This document shows, piece after piece, positions 1 to 5,162 of a stretch of DNA of 5,162 bases; the stretch's first letter is position 1; every line of letters begins with the position of its first letter. Below the pieces are notes generated by a model. It did no database searches, was not told the DNA's origin, and saw only the letters and a program-made list of their open reading frames with translations. The translations under genes and the position numbers were made by a program. This stretch comes from a virus. Lineage: Duplodnaviria; Heunggongvirae; Uroviricota; Caudoviricetes. Where the stretch lies: the IMG/VR virus record IMGVR_UViG_2541047790_000010, one strand, 5' to 3'.

Positions 1-1413
1 AGGACTGGCCGGCAAACCGGGTACGCGATCTGTTGCCCTGGAAAGTTGATCTGAGCTCTCAGTAAATATCAATACGGTTCTGACGAGTCGCTTACTTCTG
101 TCCGGTTTACACAGCGAGATATATTCCATCAGGAATGCTCTGGCCATGCCGTTAATGTTGATGTAAGAAAGCCCGTTAACCAGCAGAACGCGGCGCAGTT
201 CTTCCCCGCTACCGCCCAGCATCTCCATCGGCATTGCCCATTTACGGCTGTTTCCGTTGGTATCTTCCCATTCCAGCAAACGCCCGTAATTACTTCCATC
301 AGCATCACTGGTGATTGCCGTCACCCGCAACGGACTGCAAATTTTGATATTACGTATCTCTGTATCACCATCAGACTTATTAACCAGCTTGTCGTACCAC
401 AAATATTCTTTTGTCAGCCGGAACCCTTCTGGTAAACGGGTCTGCCCTTTGCCATGCAGCGTCATTTCTTCACGAAAGGCATCTCTCGCCCGTTCTTTCC
501 CCACTTCCTGCCGATAATCATCCCAGTCAGCCTTATGGCGTACCGGAGGGAGCGTTACCCAGCCATCCACCGCTTTGGCGGCTTTCTCTGCCTGAATACG
601 CCCGGTGTTTTCTTTGCCGTCAGCCAGATCATTATCTCCGGCCAGAATGATCCGGGTTTCCGGCCAGCGTTTTCGGATCTGCTCCGTCACCTTCAGTAAA
701 TTGGTGGCAGCGACAGCCGCCACGATCCATCCTTCAGTCAGCAGACTGACGGTAAGCGCCGTGGCAAAACCCTCAGTGATAATCACCTGTTCAGGTGTTT
801 CAGCGGGTATATCGGTCAGGGCAATGAATGCGCCAGACAGCTGGCTACCGGGCAGCAGACTTTTATCCCCGTCAGGATTGATAAGCTGGCCACCAGTAAT
901 ATTCCCGGAAATATCCGTCAAAGGCAGCAGTAATGAACCGGTGGAAAATGTTATTCCGGCCAGATTCAAAGGCTGTGACAGCAAGGGAAGTGAATACCCG
1001 TGTAAGCTCTTATTTGTCAGATAGACCGGCTCACCATTGCAGGACTGCTGTCTGAGTCTGGTATATCGCTCCGCGCCCGCTTCTTTTCCTGCGGCCTTTT
1101 TCCTGGCTGGCAATGCGGGCTTCTCCTGTATTTCTGGTAATGCAAGCGCCTCAGATACCATCCCGGCGACTTCTTTTATCTTTCTTCCTGTCACCAGACG
1201 AACCAGATCAAGACCATCGCCATGACCGCACTGATTACAAAACCACGTCCCTCGCCCCGCTTTATCGTCCAGTCGAAAACGATCTTTTCCACCACAGGCA
1301 GGGCAAGCCCCATGATGTCCTGCGGACGGTACTTTAATACCTAATGCTGACAGGATATAAGGCCAGCGCCCAATTGCAGCTCCGGAAATCGTGGATACAG
1401 ACGGTGTTTTCAC
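1..1413 (-). CDS. P4 alpha-type DNA primase, N-terminal 471 codons (zinc-ribbon + Toprim + DUF927-like region); 3' end truncated by window edge
   Basis: Open frame with no stop from 1413 down to position 1. GTG start at 1411-1413 overlaps the upstream TGA (GTGA), with AGGAGG (revcomp of 1421-1426) 7 nt upstream. Translation has a four-Cys zinc ribbon (HHGACPACGGKDRF...WFCNQCGHGDG), a Toprim-like glutamate (IITEGFATAL) and DxD (ILAGDNDLADG), then a segment (LEWEDTNGNSRKWAMPMEMLGGSGEEL) resembling the region after Toprim in phage/satellite primases. No ATG-initiated minus ORF was in the ORF track because the stop lies outside the window. Confidence 0.85.
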   Translation of the reverse strand, partial: MKTPSVSTISGAAIGRWPYILSALGIKVPSAGHHGACPACGGKDRFRLDDKAGRGTWFCNQCGHGDGLDLVRLVTGRKIKEVAGMVSEALALPEIQEKPALPARKKAAGKEAGAERYTRLRQQSCNGEPVYLTNKSLHGYSLPLLSQPLNLAGITFSTGSLLLPLTDISGNITGGQLINPDGDKSLLPGSQLSGAFIALTDIPAETPEQVIITEGFATALTVSLLTEGWIVAAVAATNLLKVTEQIRKRWPETRIILAGDNDLADGKENTGRIQAEKAAKAVDGWVTLPPVRHKADWDDYRQEVGKERARDAFREEMTLHGKGQTRLPEGFRLTKEYLWYDKLVNKSDGDTEIRNIKICSPLRVTAITSDADGSNYGRLLEWEDTNGNSRKWAMPMEMLGGSGEELRRVLLVNGLSYININGMARAFLMEYISLCKPDRSKRLVRTVLIFTESSDQLSRATDRVPGLPASP

Positions 1414-1820: not shown

Positions 1821-2049
1821 CGCGCATCACTCCCTTAATTGTGCTGGTTTCCTTAACAACGCCATCCAGTTGTTCGGCAATACAGGCCACTAAAGCCGCA
1901 GCGCCTTCCGCTGAAACAGTTCTCGCTCCATTCACTGTGGGCACGGACAAGACCTCTGCAAGAAACTCACTGGCCAGTGCCGCCCGTAACAGACGACTCT
2001 CCCCCTGTTCACTCAATATGCAGCCTTGCTTAAAATTCATGGATTTCAT
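1813..2049 (-). CDS. Hypothetical small protein (78 aa)
   Basis: ATG at 2047-2049 overlaps the stop of the upstream 67-aa gene (ATGA). GGAGGTG 6-7 nt upstream (revcomp of 2056-2062). Alternative in-frame ATG at 2040. No family recognised. Confidence 0.55.
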   Translation of the reverse strand: MKSMNFKQGCILSEQGESRLLRAALASEFLAEVLSVPTVNGARTVSAEGAAALVACIAEQLDGVVKETSTIKGVMRDE

Positions 2050-2249
2050 GCAACCACCTCCCCGGCTCTTTTCACAGGGATACGGGCAGCAAAGCTCAGG
2101 ATAAATTCAGTGGCAAGTTTAAGGCGTGCAGCATGCTCGCATTCTGCGATTACACGCACAGGGCGTGGACGGGCATCACGGTCTGTACGGCGGACAGCCA
2201 GAAAGACAAAGGTAAATTCAGGGTGAGATAAAGCAGGGACTGTAGCCAT
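2046..2249 (-). CDS. Small protein (67 aa), first gene after the immunity leader; candidate Icd-like (P1 immI-type) protein
   Basis: Internal in-frame ATG (2247-2249) of the 196-aa ORF 2046..2636, chosen because GGAGG (revcomp of 2258-2262) sits 8 nt upstream and the upstream part of the long ORF runs through terminator and RNA-structure sequence. Icd-like assignment is by position downstream of a C4-type RNA locus and by memory of how such islands are annotated, not by alignment. Confidence 0.5.
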   Translation of the reverse strand: MATVPALSHPEFTFVFLAVRRTDRDARPRPVRVIAECEHAARLKLATEFILSFAARIPVKRAGEVVA

Positions 2250-2257
2250 AATGGCAA

Positions 2258-2302
2258 CCTCCTTCAGATAGCGGGTAACGCTACCACCGGAGTTCCTACG
2301 CT
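2258..2302 (-). promoter_or_regulatory. Candidate antisense-RNA target site 2 (bipartite blocks) overlapping the Shine-Dalgarno of the 67-aa gene
   Basis: Minus-strand sense contains GCGTAGGAAC (plus 2292-2301) and TATCTGAAGG (plus 2261-2270). The second block runs into the SD (TATCTGAAGGAGG). Both 10-mers recur identically at 2501-2526. Confidence 0.45.
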
Positions 2303-2309
2303 CATGGGT

Positions 2310-2385
2310 GGTAGCCCAGACGGGGGTAGGAATACCGGCTCTGAAGGATACCGGCCAGCCCGAAAGCTGCCCCGCCTGGACTACC
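2310..2385 (-). ncRNA. Candidate C4/CI-type antisense immunity RNA (about 76 nt, structured)
   Basis: Minus-strand RNA 5'-GGUAGUCCAGGCGGGG...CCCCCGUCUGGGCUACC-3' forms a 16-bp closing stem (14 Watson-Crick + 2 G-U) between plus 2370-2385 and 2310-2326. Inside are a CAGC/GCUG hairpin (2356-2369) and a CCGG/CCGG hairpin (2335-2354) whose 12-nt loop carries UCCUUCAGA, followed by single-stranded UUCCUAC. These two segments are complementary to the two blocks of both target sites. Confidence 0.45.
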
Positions 2386-2469
2386 ATAATTCTGATGATG
2401 TGGCGTAAAAAATAAAAAAATACAATCAGCCACCACACCATAAATTTTAGGTGAGTCAAAGCTGCGACA

Positions 2470-2493
2470 CAAAAAAACACGCCTAGCGCGTGT
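2470..2493 (-). terminator. Intrinsic terminator-like hairpin with U7 tail inside the leader
   Basis: Minus-strand ACACGC-GCUAG-GCGUGU (6-bp stem, 5-nt loop; plus 2477-2493) followed directly by a run of 7 U (plus A-run 2471-2477, sharing one base with the stem). Lies 8 nt downstream of target site 1. Confidence 0.5.
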
Positions 2494-2500
2494 AGTATCG

Positions 2501-2526
2501 CCTTCAGATAACACGGGTTCCTACGC
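2501..2526 (-). promoter_or_regulatory. Candidate antisense-RNA target site 1 (upstream copy of the bipartite motif)
   Basis: Minus-strand sense GCGTAGGAAC (plus 2517-2526) and TATCTGAAGG (plus 2501-2510) separated by 6 nt. Same two 10-mers as site 2, where the spacing is 21 nt. Confidence 0.4.
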
Positions 2527-2555
2527 CCGGCTGCCGATTTTGCGGCAACCTTTAA

Positions 2556-2585
2556 ACTATATCCCGCGCATTCCTGGTGAGGCAA
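2556..2585 (-). promoter_or_regulatory. Candidate sigma70 promoter for the leader/immunity transcript
   Basis: Minus strand TTGCCT (plus 2580-2585), 18-nt spacer, TATAGT (plus 2556-2561). A second, weaker candidate (TTGTGT-17-TAAAAT, -10 at plus 2444-2449) lies between the leader terminator and the structured RNA. Sequence resemblance only. Confidence 0.3.
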
Positions 2586-2688
2586 GAAATTTATAACCGA
2601 AAACTGATCATTGCCTGGATTAATTAACGCTGGCATGCTTAAGCCTCTGCTTAAAAATAGTTCTTCATTTTTCCTGATGCTGTAAACG

Positions 2689-2723: not shown

Positions 2724-3728
2724 TCAATCCGCAAACGTCAGGGTGCACTCATCAACAGCCGCGTACAGTTCAGGTTCACCGAGTGCATAACCTTCATTGC
2801 GCAGGTAGGAATGCACGTATTCACTGCTTTCATCATCAAACTCAGCACGAAACCAGCGTGTTATCGCCTGAGTGTAAATATGCAGATTATCCAGCGTCGT
2901 TACTGCCAGACGCTTACCCGGCATAAACGGGGGAATAAACGCAAAGCGGCCAGCAACAGAACTTGTAGCCATCTGTGCCGCATTCACATCAGACGGGCGG
3001 TCTGCGGCATTAAATAACTTCAGGCGTTGATGTGCTGCCAGCTCTGCCCCAACCAGTACAACCAGACGAGGATCTTCACGAAACTGCTCAGCAATAAGCT
3101 CTGTAATCAGATGGTTGGCCAGAGCATCAATATTTTTCCAGGTGCCAGTCTCTCCCAGAGTGACAGGCTCAGAGATGATTTGCTTTCCGTTCCCGTAGGC
3201 TTTCGCCAGTGCATGCCAGCCAATATTGACATCCTCGCCTTTTTTATTGATTTCCGGGTTTGTAGTATTTGCAATCGACACACCGTTGAAACCGACCCGC
3301 AGCATGTCCAGCGCATATGCCTGGGCAAAAAAGCTCTCAACCGTTTTCTCAAACTCATCCGGCACGCCGGTATGGTAAATATGAGACATATCGGAATAGC
3401 TGATCCGGGCGCAGGTATCCGTCTCTGTCAGAAAGAACTCCGTACCATTGATTGCCATTTTTTTGTGGAAACGGCCACCATCCACACGTCCGGTATACAG
3501 TTCACTGGCACCAATATTGACGGCATTACCTGACACGGCGTTAACATCACGTAGGGTAATATTTTTAATAAGCCACCCGGATTCCAGAATTGAGGTACGC
3601 AGTATATTTTCAGTAGGTTCGCTTAATGCAAAGCGTCTGTTTGATTCTTCCTGATAGTTAGTGCCAGTGACGAATTTATTATGATAACGACGTGCTGCGT
3701 CCGGCCTTTCAGTTTTGAAGGCATACAT
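2724..3728 (-). CDS. Major capsid protein homologue, P2 gpN family (334 aa)
   Basis: ATG at 3726-3728 with AAGGTGA about 8 nt upstream. Translation matches my recollection of P2 gpN in several blocks: FALSEPTENIL...ESGWL, LRVGFNGV, NIGW, IDALANHLITELIAEQFREDPRLVVLVGAELAAHQ, and TLDNLHIY near the C-terminus. Similarity is judged from memory of gpN, not computed. Confidence 0.8.
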   Translation of the reverse strand: MYAFKTERPDAARRYHNKFVTGTNYQEESNRRFALSEPTENILRTSILESGWLIKNITLRDVNAVSGNAVNIGASELYTGRVDGGRFHKKMAINGTEFFLTETDTCARISYSDMSHIYHTGVPDEFEKTVESFFAQAYALDMLRVGFNGVSIANTTNPEINKKGEDVNIGWHALAKAYGNGKQIISEPVTLGETGTWKNIDALANHLITELIAEQFREDPRLVVLVGAELAAHQRLKLFNAADRPSDVNAAQMATSSVAGRFAFIPPFMPGKRLAVTTLDNLHIYTQAITRWFRAEFDDESSEYVHSYLRNEGYALGEPELYAAVDECTLTFAD

Positions 3729-3750: not shown

Positions 3751-4611
3751 TTAAGAAAAGATTTTATTTTTGTACTCAGTAACCAGATTGTATTTCATTA
3801 CATGCTCAACATAATCCCGGTCACTTACGACTGAACGTAATACATAATTATCTGCTCGATAGTACTCCCTGTAAGCCATAGCTCTTGCCATTCCACCGTT
3901 ATTTAATACATAACGATCAGTTGGAACGCTACAACGACTAATAATTTCACTCACGGAATCAGATAAAGACTTGAGTGCATCAGTAATAAATTTAATATCA
4001 CGGACAACGTCACTGTCATTAAATACAGAAATAAAATCAGCAGGGATCTGGCCGGATTGAGGAAATATATTCAGTAAACGCTTATCGATTCCCTTCCCAA
4101 TGTAGTTTCCTTCATCGGCCAGTACTCCCGGCAAAAGCTTGATCGTGCTCAATCGACTATGTTGTTCATTCAACCGGGAAACAGCCAGATGGTAATACCG
4201 TTCAGCATCCGCTCGTTCAGCATGCCCCATTTTATTCGTTTTGGCTTCAGCAATGCTACTGACGCCGTTTTTTGAGAATGTGCTTTTCCATGCAACTTCC
4301 GCATTTGTCACTTCACGCTGCCGGAAAGATAACTCTTCCTCTTCCTGACGACACAACTGGGCATAACGGCTCAGGAGCAGGTTGATCTCATTCGCCACAG
4401 TTTCCGTATCAGGTACTGTTAACCCCGTAAGTGAATACAGCTTTTCACCTTTAGCTCGCAGCTTATTCAGTGAATATATTTCAATAATACGCACAATACA
4501 GGCCGTGTCGCTATGAGTCTCTTTAAATGATCTTACTTTGTAACTATCTAACACCGACACATGTTCGTTCTTAATTGATGCCAATTTCTTCTTAAAAACA
4601 TTGTCAACCAT
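3751..4611 (-). CDS. Hypothetical protein (286 aa), orphan, A+T-rich; function unknown
   Basis: ATG at 4609-4611 with GAGGTGG 9-10 nt upstream; 17 nt after the alpA stop and 22 nt before the capsid start, so probably co-transcribed. No recognisable catalytic motif, Walker A or transmembrane stretch. Charged, probably helical middle segment (LCRQEEEELSFRQREV...). Visibly A+T-richer than the capsid and primase genes. Confidence 0.7.
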   Translation of the reverse strand: MVDNVFKKKLASIKNEHVSVLDSYKVRSFKETHSDTACIVRIIEIYSLNKLRAKGEKLYSLTGLTVPDTETVANEINLLLSRYAQLCRQEEEELSFRQREVTNAEVAWKSTFSKNGVSSIAEAKTNKMGHAERADAERYYHLAVSRLNEQHSRLSTIKLLPGVLADEGNYIGKGIDKRLLNIFPQSGQIPADFISVFNDSDVVRDIKFITDALKSLSDSVSEIISRCSVPTDRYVLNNGGMARAMAYREYYRADNYVLRSVVSDRDYVEHVMKYNLVTEYKNKIFS

Positions 4612-4987: not shown

Positions 4988-5018
4988 AATAATGGTGAAT
5001 AATAGTTAATAATGGTGA
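4988..5018. repeat. Two copies of an 11-bp direct repeat AATAATGGTGA with 20-bp periodicity; candidate operator/iteron
   Basis: Exact copies at 4988-4998 and 5008-5018 in the A+T-rich region upstream of alpA. A small inverted repeat AGACT-N5-AGTCT (4889-4903) lies nearer the alpA start, overlapping a TATAAA -10-like element (minus-strand sense; plus 4880-4885). Confidence 0.5.
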
Positions 5019-5128: not shown

Positions 5129-5162
5129 GGGGCTGGGCTGGGCTGGGCTGGGCTGGGCTGGG
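5129..5162. repeat. Pentanucleotide tandem repeat (GGGCT)n, at least 6 units, running off the window edge
   Basis: GGGGCTGGGCTGGGCTGGGCTGGGCTGGGCTGG directly visible; an abrupt change from the preceding A+T-rich sequence. Full length unknown because the window ends inside it. Confidence 0.9.

Follow-up and report, generated by a model that had tools for sequence, protein, structure and literature searches.

The two-block repeat in the 5,162-nt stretch of DNA analyzed here (hereafter, the window) consists, with a probability that we put at about 0.93, of the cis-acting targets of an RNA immunity system of a P4-like satellite, with a specificity unlike that of P4 itself. The two copies of the repeat flank an antisense RNA of the C4/CI type and are complementary to its two exposed segments, and across related loci, the blocks and the corresponding RNA segments change together. 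The feature is of a well-characterized, already known kind, namely, textbook P4-type seqA and seqC targets.

All features described below lie on the minus strand unless marked otherwise. An exact search of both strands of the window recovered exactly two copies each of the 10-mers GCGTAGGAAC (2526-2517 and 2301-2292) and TATCTGAAGG (2510-2501 and 2270-2261), and no further exact copy of either on either strand. The initial annotation, according to which the two 10-mers occur together twice, at 2501-2526 and 2261-2301, with 6- and 21-nt spacing, and nowhere else, is thereby borne out. In this repeat search, GCGTAGGAAC and TATCTGAAGG represent a1 and b1 in the upstream target copy (seqA/a1b1; 2501..2526) and a2 and b2 in the downstream target copy (seqC/a2b2; 2261..2301), with the spacers occupying positions 2511-2516 and 2271-2291, respectively. 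Of 300 dinucleotide-preserving shuffles of the window, one contained two exact 10-mer direct repeats arranged colinearly within 300 nt. The only near-matches in the reverse orientation, GGGTAGGAAT (2324-2333, plus strand) and GCTCTGAAGG (2338-2347, plus strand), are the complementary segments within the C4-like RNA (inverted repeats I6, I8, I11, and I3).

This RNA, a C4/CI-type antisense RNA corresponding to P4 cI with seqB, occupies positions 2304..2391, exactly between the two target copies and on the same strand, and matches the full 87-position model of the Rfam family RF01695 with 81.1 bits (gathering score, 45; E = 2e-15). The exposed parts of the C4 model are the b' loop, UAUCCUUCAGAG (approximately 2351-2340), and the unpaired a' segment, AUUCCUAC (approximately 2334-2327), of which the former is complementary to TCTGAAGG(A) and the latter to GTAGGAA, as captured by the same four inverted repeats. 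In particular, the a' pairing encompasses 7 nt with each of the a blocks, and the b' pairing spans 8 nt with the upstream b block and 9 nt with the downstream one, the latter complementarity corresponding to TCTGAAGGA (2268-2260; inverted repeat I8). In the minimum-free-energy fold of the whole leader (z = -4.5), the CI loops pair in cis with copy 1; this modeled structure is consistent with the complementarity and is uninformative on cis versus trans action in vivo.

Upstream of the antisense RNA, a consensus scan identified a promoter-like site, TTGCCT-18 nt-TATAGT (2556..2585), the counterpart of P4 PLE, and the CTTGCCT and GGATATAGTTT stretches are unchanged in the alignment between the window and P4. 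The predicted transcript start, around position 2549, falls on the first position of the isrK model (RF01394), which is matched at 2472..2549 with 68.9 bits (gathering score, 50) and is covered fully (positions 1-77 of 77), including the terminator. This IsrK-like leader, equivalent to the P4 seqA region, consists, in this order, of hairpin 1, a second hairpin with a1 in its loop (CCGGG-CGUAGGAA-CCCG), single-stranded b1, and a terminator hairpin followed by a U-run. The c4-a1b1 family (RF03163; "a1, b1 targets of C4 antisense RNA") was matched at 2562-2510 with 43.8 bits, slightly under its gathering score of 46.7. The intrinsic terminator-like hairpin (2477..2493), the counterpart of P4 t1, is followed by T7 (2476-2470), corresponds to the 3'-most hairpin in the isrK model, and is conserved between the window and P4; the hairpin and U7 together (2493-2470) were the sole terminator-like site found in the region by the terminator scan. 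The candidate promoter and the candidate terminator, both of which are to be taken as consensus matches only, lie at the places of PLE and t1 in P4.

Read on the minus strand, the downstream copy continues as TATCTGAAGG-AGG-TTGCCATT-ATG, such that the final two G's of the downstream TATCTGAAGG (G2262 and G2261) are also the opening bases of GGAGG (2258..2262). Direct reading thus confirms that the downstream copy of the 10-mer enters the Shine-Dalgarno sequence of the 67-aa gene, which is overlapped by b2. This gene (2046..2249; ATG at 2249-2247), the first one translated after the leader, belongs to the Kil/Icd-like family, as indicated by a match to the NCBIfam model NF033153 (phage_ICD_like; E = 5.1e-19) and by 53% identity over 59 aa to the 65-aa Kil protein of P4 (E = 7e-18). 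Occlusion of this ribosome-binding site by an antisense element, in the manner of C4 at icd, had been put forward in the initial annotation, and the C4 match between the copies, the IsrK and a1b1 matches on the upstream copy, and the Icd-like gene match all point to such occlusion as the probable mode of action, as far as sequence comparison goes. The kil-like gene is also the end of a 196-aa eta-like ORF in the same frame (2046..2636; ORF list and Pfam), labeled "Icd-like" in RefSeq, which starts upstream of the promoter-like site, remains open through seqA, the CI RNA, and seqC, and matches Pfam Phage_ASH (E = 3.1e-32, aa 26-141). By analogy with P4, the eta frame may be translated from an upstream promoter, which would not explain the blocks.

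The a2 block is presented in the loop of a hairpin (2280..2315; inverted repeat I9 and RNAalifold) formed by GCUACCAC and GUGGUAGC. The 5' arm, GCUACCAC (2315-2308), doubles as the 3' end of the CI stem; the 3' arm, GUGGUAGC (2287-2280), takes up most of the 21-nt spacer. Among 71 distinct sequences, RNAalifold predicted eight pairs, kept in 70-71 of the 71, and three of these eight pairs show compensatory double changes, in 17, 15, and 15 sequences. The initial annotation had taken the variable spacer around conserved blocks as a sign of selection on the blocks; the blocks are indeed under selection, but the longer spacer is not free to vary, its length being due to the 3' arm of the conserved a2-presenting hairpin that lies within it.

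The relationship between the blocks and the RNA loops was assessed across related elements, using 120 IMG/VR loci in which the conserved hairpin before a1 is present. From these, a1/b1, b'/a', and a2/b2 were extracted, with 116 loci yielding the extracted set; the counts given below rest on 96-99 distinct sequences, with the pairs counted in a fixed register. A scan of genome contigs with the degenerate pattern GCAAAATCNGCNNCCGGG produced mostly chance matches in unrelated phyla, and only two loci, L004 (Erwinia) and L102, were kept. In the 96 distinct loci, pairing between the RNA loops and the two target copies extends over almost all positions. For a', all pairs are Watson-Crick, at 672 of 672 positions with a1 and 672 of 672 with a2. 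Among the 768 positions compared between b' and b1, 734 are Watson-Crick pairs, 30 are G-U pairs, and 4 are mismatches, and the corresponding values for b2 are 739, 24, and 5. Each CI RNA is matched to its own downstream target: in 94 of the 96 loci, 14-15 of the 15 positions form Watson-Crick pairs, whereas foreign targets show a mode of 9. The architecture around the blocks is constant: GGAG starts 6 nt into the b2 core, overlapping b2, in 96 of 99 loci, the distance from the beginning of the b2 core to the ATG is 18-19 nt (96-99 distinct loci), and the a-to-b core spacing is fixed in each copy, at 9 nt upstream and 24-25 nt downstream. Thus, the blocks co-vary with the RNA loops in 96 related loci while the flanks stay constant, in line with the earlier claim of selection on the blocks as opposed to a plain duplication.

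The same comparison bears on the possibility that the repeat reflects a constraint at the protein level, with both copies encoding a repeated peptide, RRN...YLK, in the eta-like frame. The two copies do share the frame of the 196-aa ORF (GRRNPCYLKA and ERRNSGGSVTRYLKEV), and this frame, with its Phage_ASH match, is open through the leader and seqA hairpin in 95 of 96 loci. However, the a block encodes RRN, REN, RGN, ICS, IGV, or ISS in different loci, and the pairing of the a block with the RNA remains perfect in the face of these radical changes, so the constraint acts at the level of the nucleotides rather than the peptide. We therefore rejected this explanation, which is highly improbable.

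Equally improbable is that the blocks are operators for a DNA-binding protein, for example, an AlpA-type or Ogr/Delta-type regulator, and resemble RNA targets incidentally. Short motifs that recur near a promoter and the start of a gene are typical for operators, and the element encodes both an AlpA-type helix-turn-helix protein and an ogr/delta gene. Against this stands the third, inverted copy of the motif, which is located in both exposed segments of an RNA with a high C4 score. Furthermore, where the complementarity is imperfect, the deviations are strand-asymmetric: in 52 of the 54 wobbles, U belongs to the CI RNA and G to the target, and only one A:C combination was observed, an asymmetry that is unexpected for duplex-DNA sites and therefore argues for RNA-RNA pairing on the minus strand. 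Moreover, the a- and b-types vary freely, with no obvious matching change in the nearby protein genes, and the homologous sites of P4 are described in a passage of PMC4825925 as genetically defined RNA targets. The operator explanation was rejected on the grounds of the inverted copy in the C4 RNA loops and the strand-asymmetric wobbles, leaving RNA targets as the preferred reading of the two copies.

Additional targets of the CI RNA in the replication genes were considered as well, given that 12 TATCTGAAGG-like sites with at most two mismatches are present in the window, against 4.3 expected. The downstream 2.5 kb of 75 loci contain, however, 0.67 sites of their own b-type compared with 0.76 for foreign b-types. 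Such extra targets were rejected, the own b-type being no more common than the foreign ones, and the excess is attributable to a composition or codon effect.

The genomic setting of the repeat is that of a P4-like satellite in Escherichia coli. The window matches E. coli chromosomes with 100% identity, and at least 80% of it is found in 440 complete genomes. In E. coli SK1144, the window lies within an island of approximately 11 kb at a tRNA-Arg gene, adjoining dsdC, with the gene order integrase, sce7725 and sce7726, ogr/delta, DUF927 primase, two small ORFs, the "Icd-like" 196-aa ORF, a capsid homolog, a 286-aa ORF, and an AlpA-type regulator. The capsid gene is a homolog of the P2-family major capsid protein, and the island is bounded by a 20-bp direct (att) repeat, the copies of which are approximately 11 kb apart. 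The makeup of the island and the bounding repeat therefore identify it as a P4-like satellite prophage. At the distal end of the operon, positions 1..1413 of the window encode the N-terminal part of the replication gene, an alpha-type primase/helicase with the Pfam domains Zn_Ribbon_Prim, Toprim_3, and DUF927 (the full coding sequence is available in locus L001). The two ORFs between the kil-like gene and alpha, of 78 and 136 aa, belong to PHROG families of unknown function, and no homology was found between them and P4 epsilon or orf151; the controlled operon is therefore not identical to that of P4. Searches of the ORFs that follow the icd-like gene revealed no domain of the Ant, KilA, or Bro type.

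Among phages, the best match for positions 2000-2720 is P4, at the old "cI/ash" ORF. The elements of the two systems follow in the same order and on the same strand, with the same three Rfam matches in the same order (the P4 C4 match, RF01695, at the equivalent place scores 74.9 bits), and the conserved parts show approximately 71-80% nucleotide identity. Each of the P4-type features accessible to sequence analysis was found in the window, that is, an RNA between the copies, complementarity to both of them, counterparts of PLE and t1, kil within eta, and alpha at the end. The likeness further includes a Kil homolog (53% identity) in a nested eta-like frame (196 aa in the window vs. approximately 199 aa for eta in P4) and the overlap of the downstream target with the Shine-Dalgarno sequence. 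Both elements also have an alpha-type primase farther downstream, are integrated at a tRNA gene, and measure approximately 11 kb. They differ in their specificity blocks. The a block is GTAGGAA in the window and GTGAGAA in P4, with the a' segments TTCCTAC and TTCTCAC, respectively; similarly, the b block and b' are TCTGAAGG and CCTTCAGA in the window but TTCACAGG and CCTGTGAA in P4. The two systems thus differ by a three-way compensatory change that involves both targets and the RNA loops. In addition, the distance from seqA to CI is 158 nt in the window vs. 185 nt in P4, and the satellite lacks epsilon and carries the P2-family major capsid homolog in the place where P4 has sid-delta-psu.

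The immI region of phages P1 and P7 (a1b1, c4, a2b2, icd, and ant1/2), which in its P1 form had served the initial annotation as a model for the antisense proposal, shows a similar logic, with an RNA of the C4 family, two bipartite targets located upstream and downstream of it, and b2 at the ribosome-binding site of an Icd-family gene. In P1 and P7, the C4-family RNA and its targets stem from one transcript, from which the RNA is released by processing, and in the P1 c4-icd-ant operon, full repression of ant requires C4 (PMC8198154). The analogy holds, but the closer relative of the system in the window is the satellite phage P4, with its CI RNA, seqA, seqC, and kil/eta, rather than P1 immI. 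The window works like immI but is not a member of this group because no ant gene follows the icd-like gene, the genes under control being those for satellite replication instead; nor is there any sign in the window of operator control by C1. The cassette also occurs in other contexts: in linear plasmid prophages (PY54, phiKO2, and their Klebsiella relatives), the C4 RNA and the a1b1 region show 80-83% nucleotide identity over approximately 200 nt. Some of the PY54/phiKO2-type records annotate an adjacent Icd-like gene; the host elements differ, however, with only the RNA cassette being common to them.

On the basis of the anatomy, P4 homology, complementarity, and co-variation observed here, and with processing, translational block, termination, and autoregulation through copy 1 inferred from P4 and P1, the following course of events can be proposed. 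A constitutive promoter (approximately 2585-2556) would transcribe a leader comprising, in this order, the a1 hairpin and b1, the intrinsic terminator, the 88-nt C4/CI-type RNA, and the a2 hairpin and b2 fused to the Shine-Dalgarno sequence, followed by the kil/icd-like gene and the alpha primase. The CI-type RNA would be excised from the leader transcript and accumulate in the lysogen. In both P4 and P1, RNase P is responsible for the 5' cut of the CI-type RNA. CI and C4 belong to the hairpin type of RNase P substrates (PMC5499578), and IsrK and C4 are structural homologs of P4 seqA and CI RNA (PMC3632133). A passage on P4 lysogens in PMC4825925 (citing Ghisotti 1992, Sabbattini 1995, and Briani 2000) describes the CI RNA as being processed from an untranslated transcript and as pairing with seqA and seqC, which flank cI, with premature termination of the replication operon as the result.

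In the window, the two exposed segments of the CI RNA would pair with the a (7 bp) and b (8-9 bp) blocks of new transcripts. Pairing of a' and b' with a2 and b2 would cover G2262, G2261, and A2260 of the Shine-Dalgarno sequence, leaving the 67-aa kil-like gene untranslated, and the untranslated RNA would then be terminated ahead of the replication genes and the primase. Occlusion of the ribosome-binding site would be a step and not the end point, because the outcome documented in P4, reportedly by Forti and colleagues in 1999, is premature transcription termination, with the block on kil translation being the proposed route. The same study and that of Briani and colleagues from 2000 are said to indicate that translation of kil prevents Rho-dependent termination at P4 timm, and that a further P4 terminator, t4, is located between cI and timm. 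Pairing with copy 1, for its part, would favor termination at 2493-2470 and thus limit CI production; in P4, according to what Briani and colleagues are said to have found, CI RNA and seqA enhance termination at the intrinsic t1, so that CI is autoregulated. The sequences of a and b would set the immunity specificity, which would account for the co-variation of these blocks with the RNA loops across elements.

The same RNA system could also have a different main output, with the IsrK-like short RNA acting in trans, as a sponge for CI or an activator of a long isoform, and not only as a cis site. The full-length match to the isrK model, terminator included, agrees with this possibility, as does the pairing of copy 1 with the CI loops in cis in the minimum-free-energy leader fold. 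The relevant precedent comes from Gifsy-1 of Salmonella (IsrK/orf45 [STnc1160]/anrP), in which an IsrK-type leader with a terminator likewise precedes a processed RNA resembling C4; in Gifsy-1, the read-through isoform is acted upon in trans by the short IsrK RNA, which activates orf45-anrP translation (PMC4825925). IsrK-like elements of P4-like prophages were, moreover, required in a TraDIS analysis of Salmonella Typhi (PMC3632133). By contrast, no anrP-like gene was found in the window, which thus has no antirepressor of this type downstream. The reported enhancement of t1 termination in P4, which Briani and colleagues are said to ascribe to seqA together with the CI RNA, also speaks against a trans-acting main output, and we consider such an output unlikely. 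By analogy, the logic of the window is expected to be that of P4-type repression rather than Gifsy-1-type activation.

With respect to specificity, the approximately 100 loci contain 6 a-types and 15-19 b-types, in at least 39 combinations. The exact allele of the window (a1 CGTAGGAA, b1 TATCTGAAGG) was found in 10 of the 116 extracted loci, counting the window itself and the identical SK1144 copy. Because the elements are ordered a1-b1 ... b'-a' ... a2-b2, each reassortment requires a coordinated change at three sites. It is conceivable, although we regard this only as a tentative generalization, that P4-type immunity is a combinatorial two-key RNA code in which the a- and b-types reassort, with the same cassette serving satellites with different payloads. 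To our knowledge, the a/b repertoire has not been described systematically, the subscription literature aside (e.g., a 1996 paper on the immunity specificity of phiR73).

The targets described here open no new mechanism, and their practical use is in annotation. In RefSeq, the entire 196-aa frame is labeled "Icd-like protein" and no RNA elements are annotated in what is most probably an RNA immunity switch; in P4 records, the same stretch is still labeled as a "cI gene product" or a "transcriptional repressor" protein. The a and b blocks would provide a direct readout of the immunity type, from which it may be predicted which P4-like satellites coexist or superinfect. For instance, the specificity blocks of the window (immunity type GTAGGAA/TCTGAAGG) are unlike those of P4, and the element is therefore predicted to be heteroimmune to P4. 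The remaining interest lies in the breadth of the a-by-b specificity repertoire and in the unusual payload of the satellite.

The Pfam family Phage_ASH (PF10554; E=3e-32) covers window 2214-2561 on the minus strand, corresponding to aa 26-141 of the 196-aa eta-like ORF, and this part of the frame is the very stretch that encodes the upstream target seqA, the t1 terminator, the CI RNA and the downstream target seqC. The RefSeq label for the entire ORF is 'Icd-like', its C-terminal 137 aa are named 'cI gene product' or 'transcriptional repressor' in the P4 records, and none of the RNA features of the region is annotated. At least some of the conservation that underlies the Phage_ASH protein family is driven by the RNA. 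In the immunity blocks of 120 IMG/VR loci (L124-L243), a-types and b-types are found in reassorted combinations; the b-type CTTATTGG, for example, is seen together with three a-types (GTAGGAA, GTGAGAA and TTTGCAG). Because the blocks are arranged in the order a1-b1 ... b'-a' ... a2-b2, each a/b swap entails coordinated change at three separate sites. The distance from seqA to CI in these loci falls into discrete classes of 140, 146, 158, 176 and 185-186 nt.

In Escherichia coli SK1144 (locus L001; NZ_AP018784), which carries an identical copy of the window, a 20-bp direct repeat, ATTCCTGCAGGGGACACCAT, is present at L001 209-228 and 11218-11237. The left copy is located at the 3' end of a tRNA-Arg gene, and the right copy lies 151 nt past the right end of the window; together, they bound an island of ~11 kb, the size of P4, located between yfdC and dsdC. 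The region between the integrase and ogr/delta genes, a variable hotspot that is the usual site of anti-phage defence cargo in P4-like satellites, contains sce7725- and sce7726-family genes (L001 1543-3396). Two short tandem arrays are located near the right end: three copies of AATAATGGTG at window 4988-5018, and 12.6 perfect copies of the pentanucleotide (GGGCT), which extend from window 5130-5162 on to L001 11097, inside the element and ~120 nt ahead of the right att repeat.

Between the kil and alpha primase genes, the minus strand encodes ORFs of 78 aa (1813-2049) and 136 aa (1410-1820), in the positions that are held in P4 by epsilon and orf151. Similarity to these two P4 genes was sought in both ORFs and none was found, the only matches being PHROG families 38507 and 5991, both of unknown function. 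This satellite may have a replacement for the helper-derepression function.

A perfect 8-bp inverted repeat, AGACCCGC-N6-GCGGGTCT (2689-2710), lies between the capsid gene, whose stop codon it directly follows, and the start of the eta-like ORF. It looks like a candidate terminator or RNA hairpin separating the two modules; the terminator scan did not call it, since it has no clean T-run. The capsid gene itself (2724-3728, minus strand) encodes a homologue of the P2-family major capsid protein, which matches PF05125 in profile searches (E=9.5e-67), scores 204.6 bits against TIGR01551, under the cut-off of 219.65, and is assigned to PHROG 70, 'major head protein'. The next gene, a 286-aa ORF on the same strand (3751-4611; both genes, L001 8629-10516), had no match in Pfam, NCBIfam or PHROGs. 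Whereas P4 has sid-delta-psu at this position, the present P4-like satellite has its own capsid protein homologue, and may redirect helper capsid assembly by a route other than P4 Sid/Psu.
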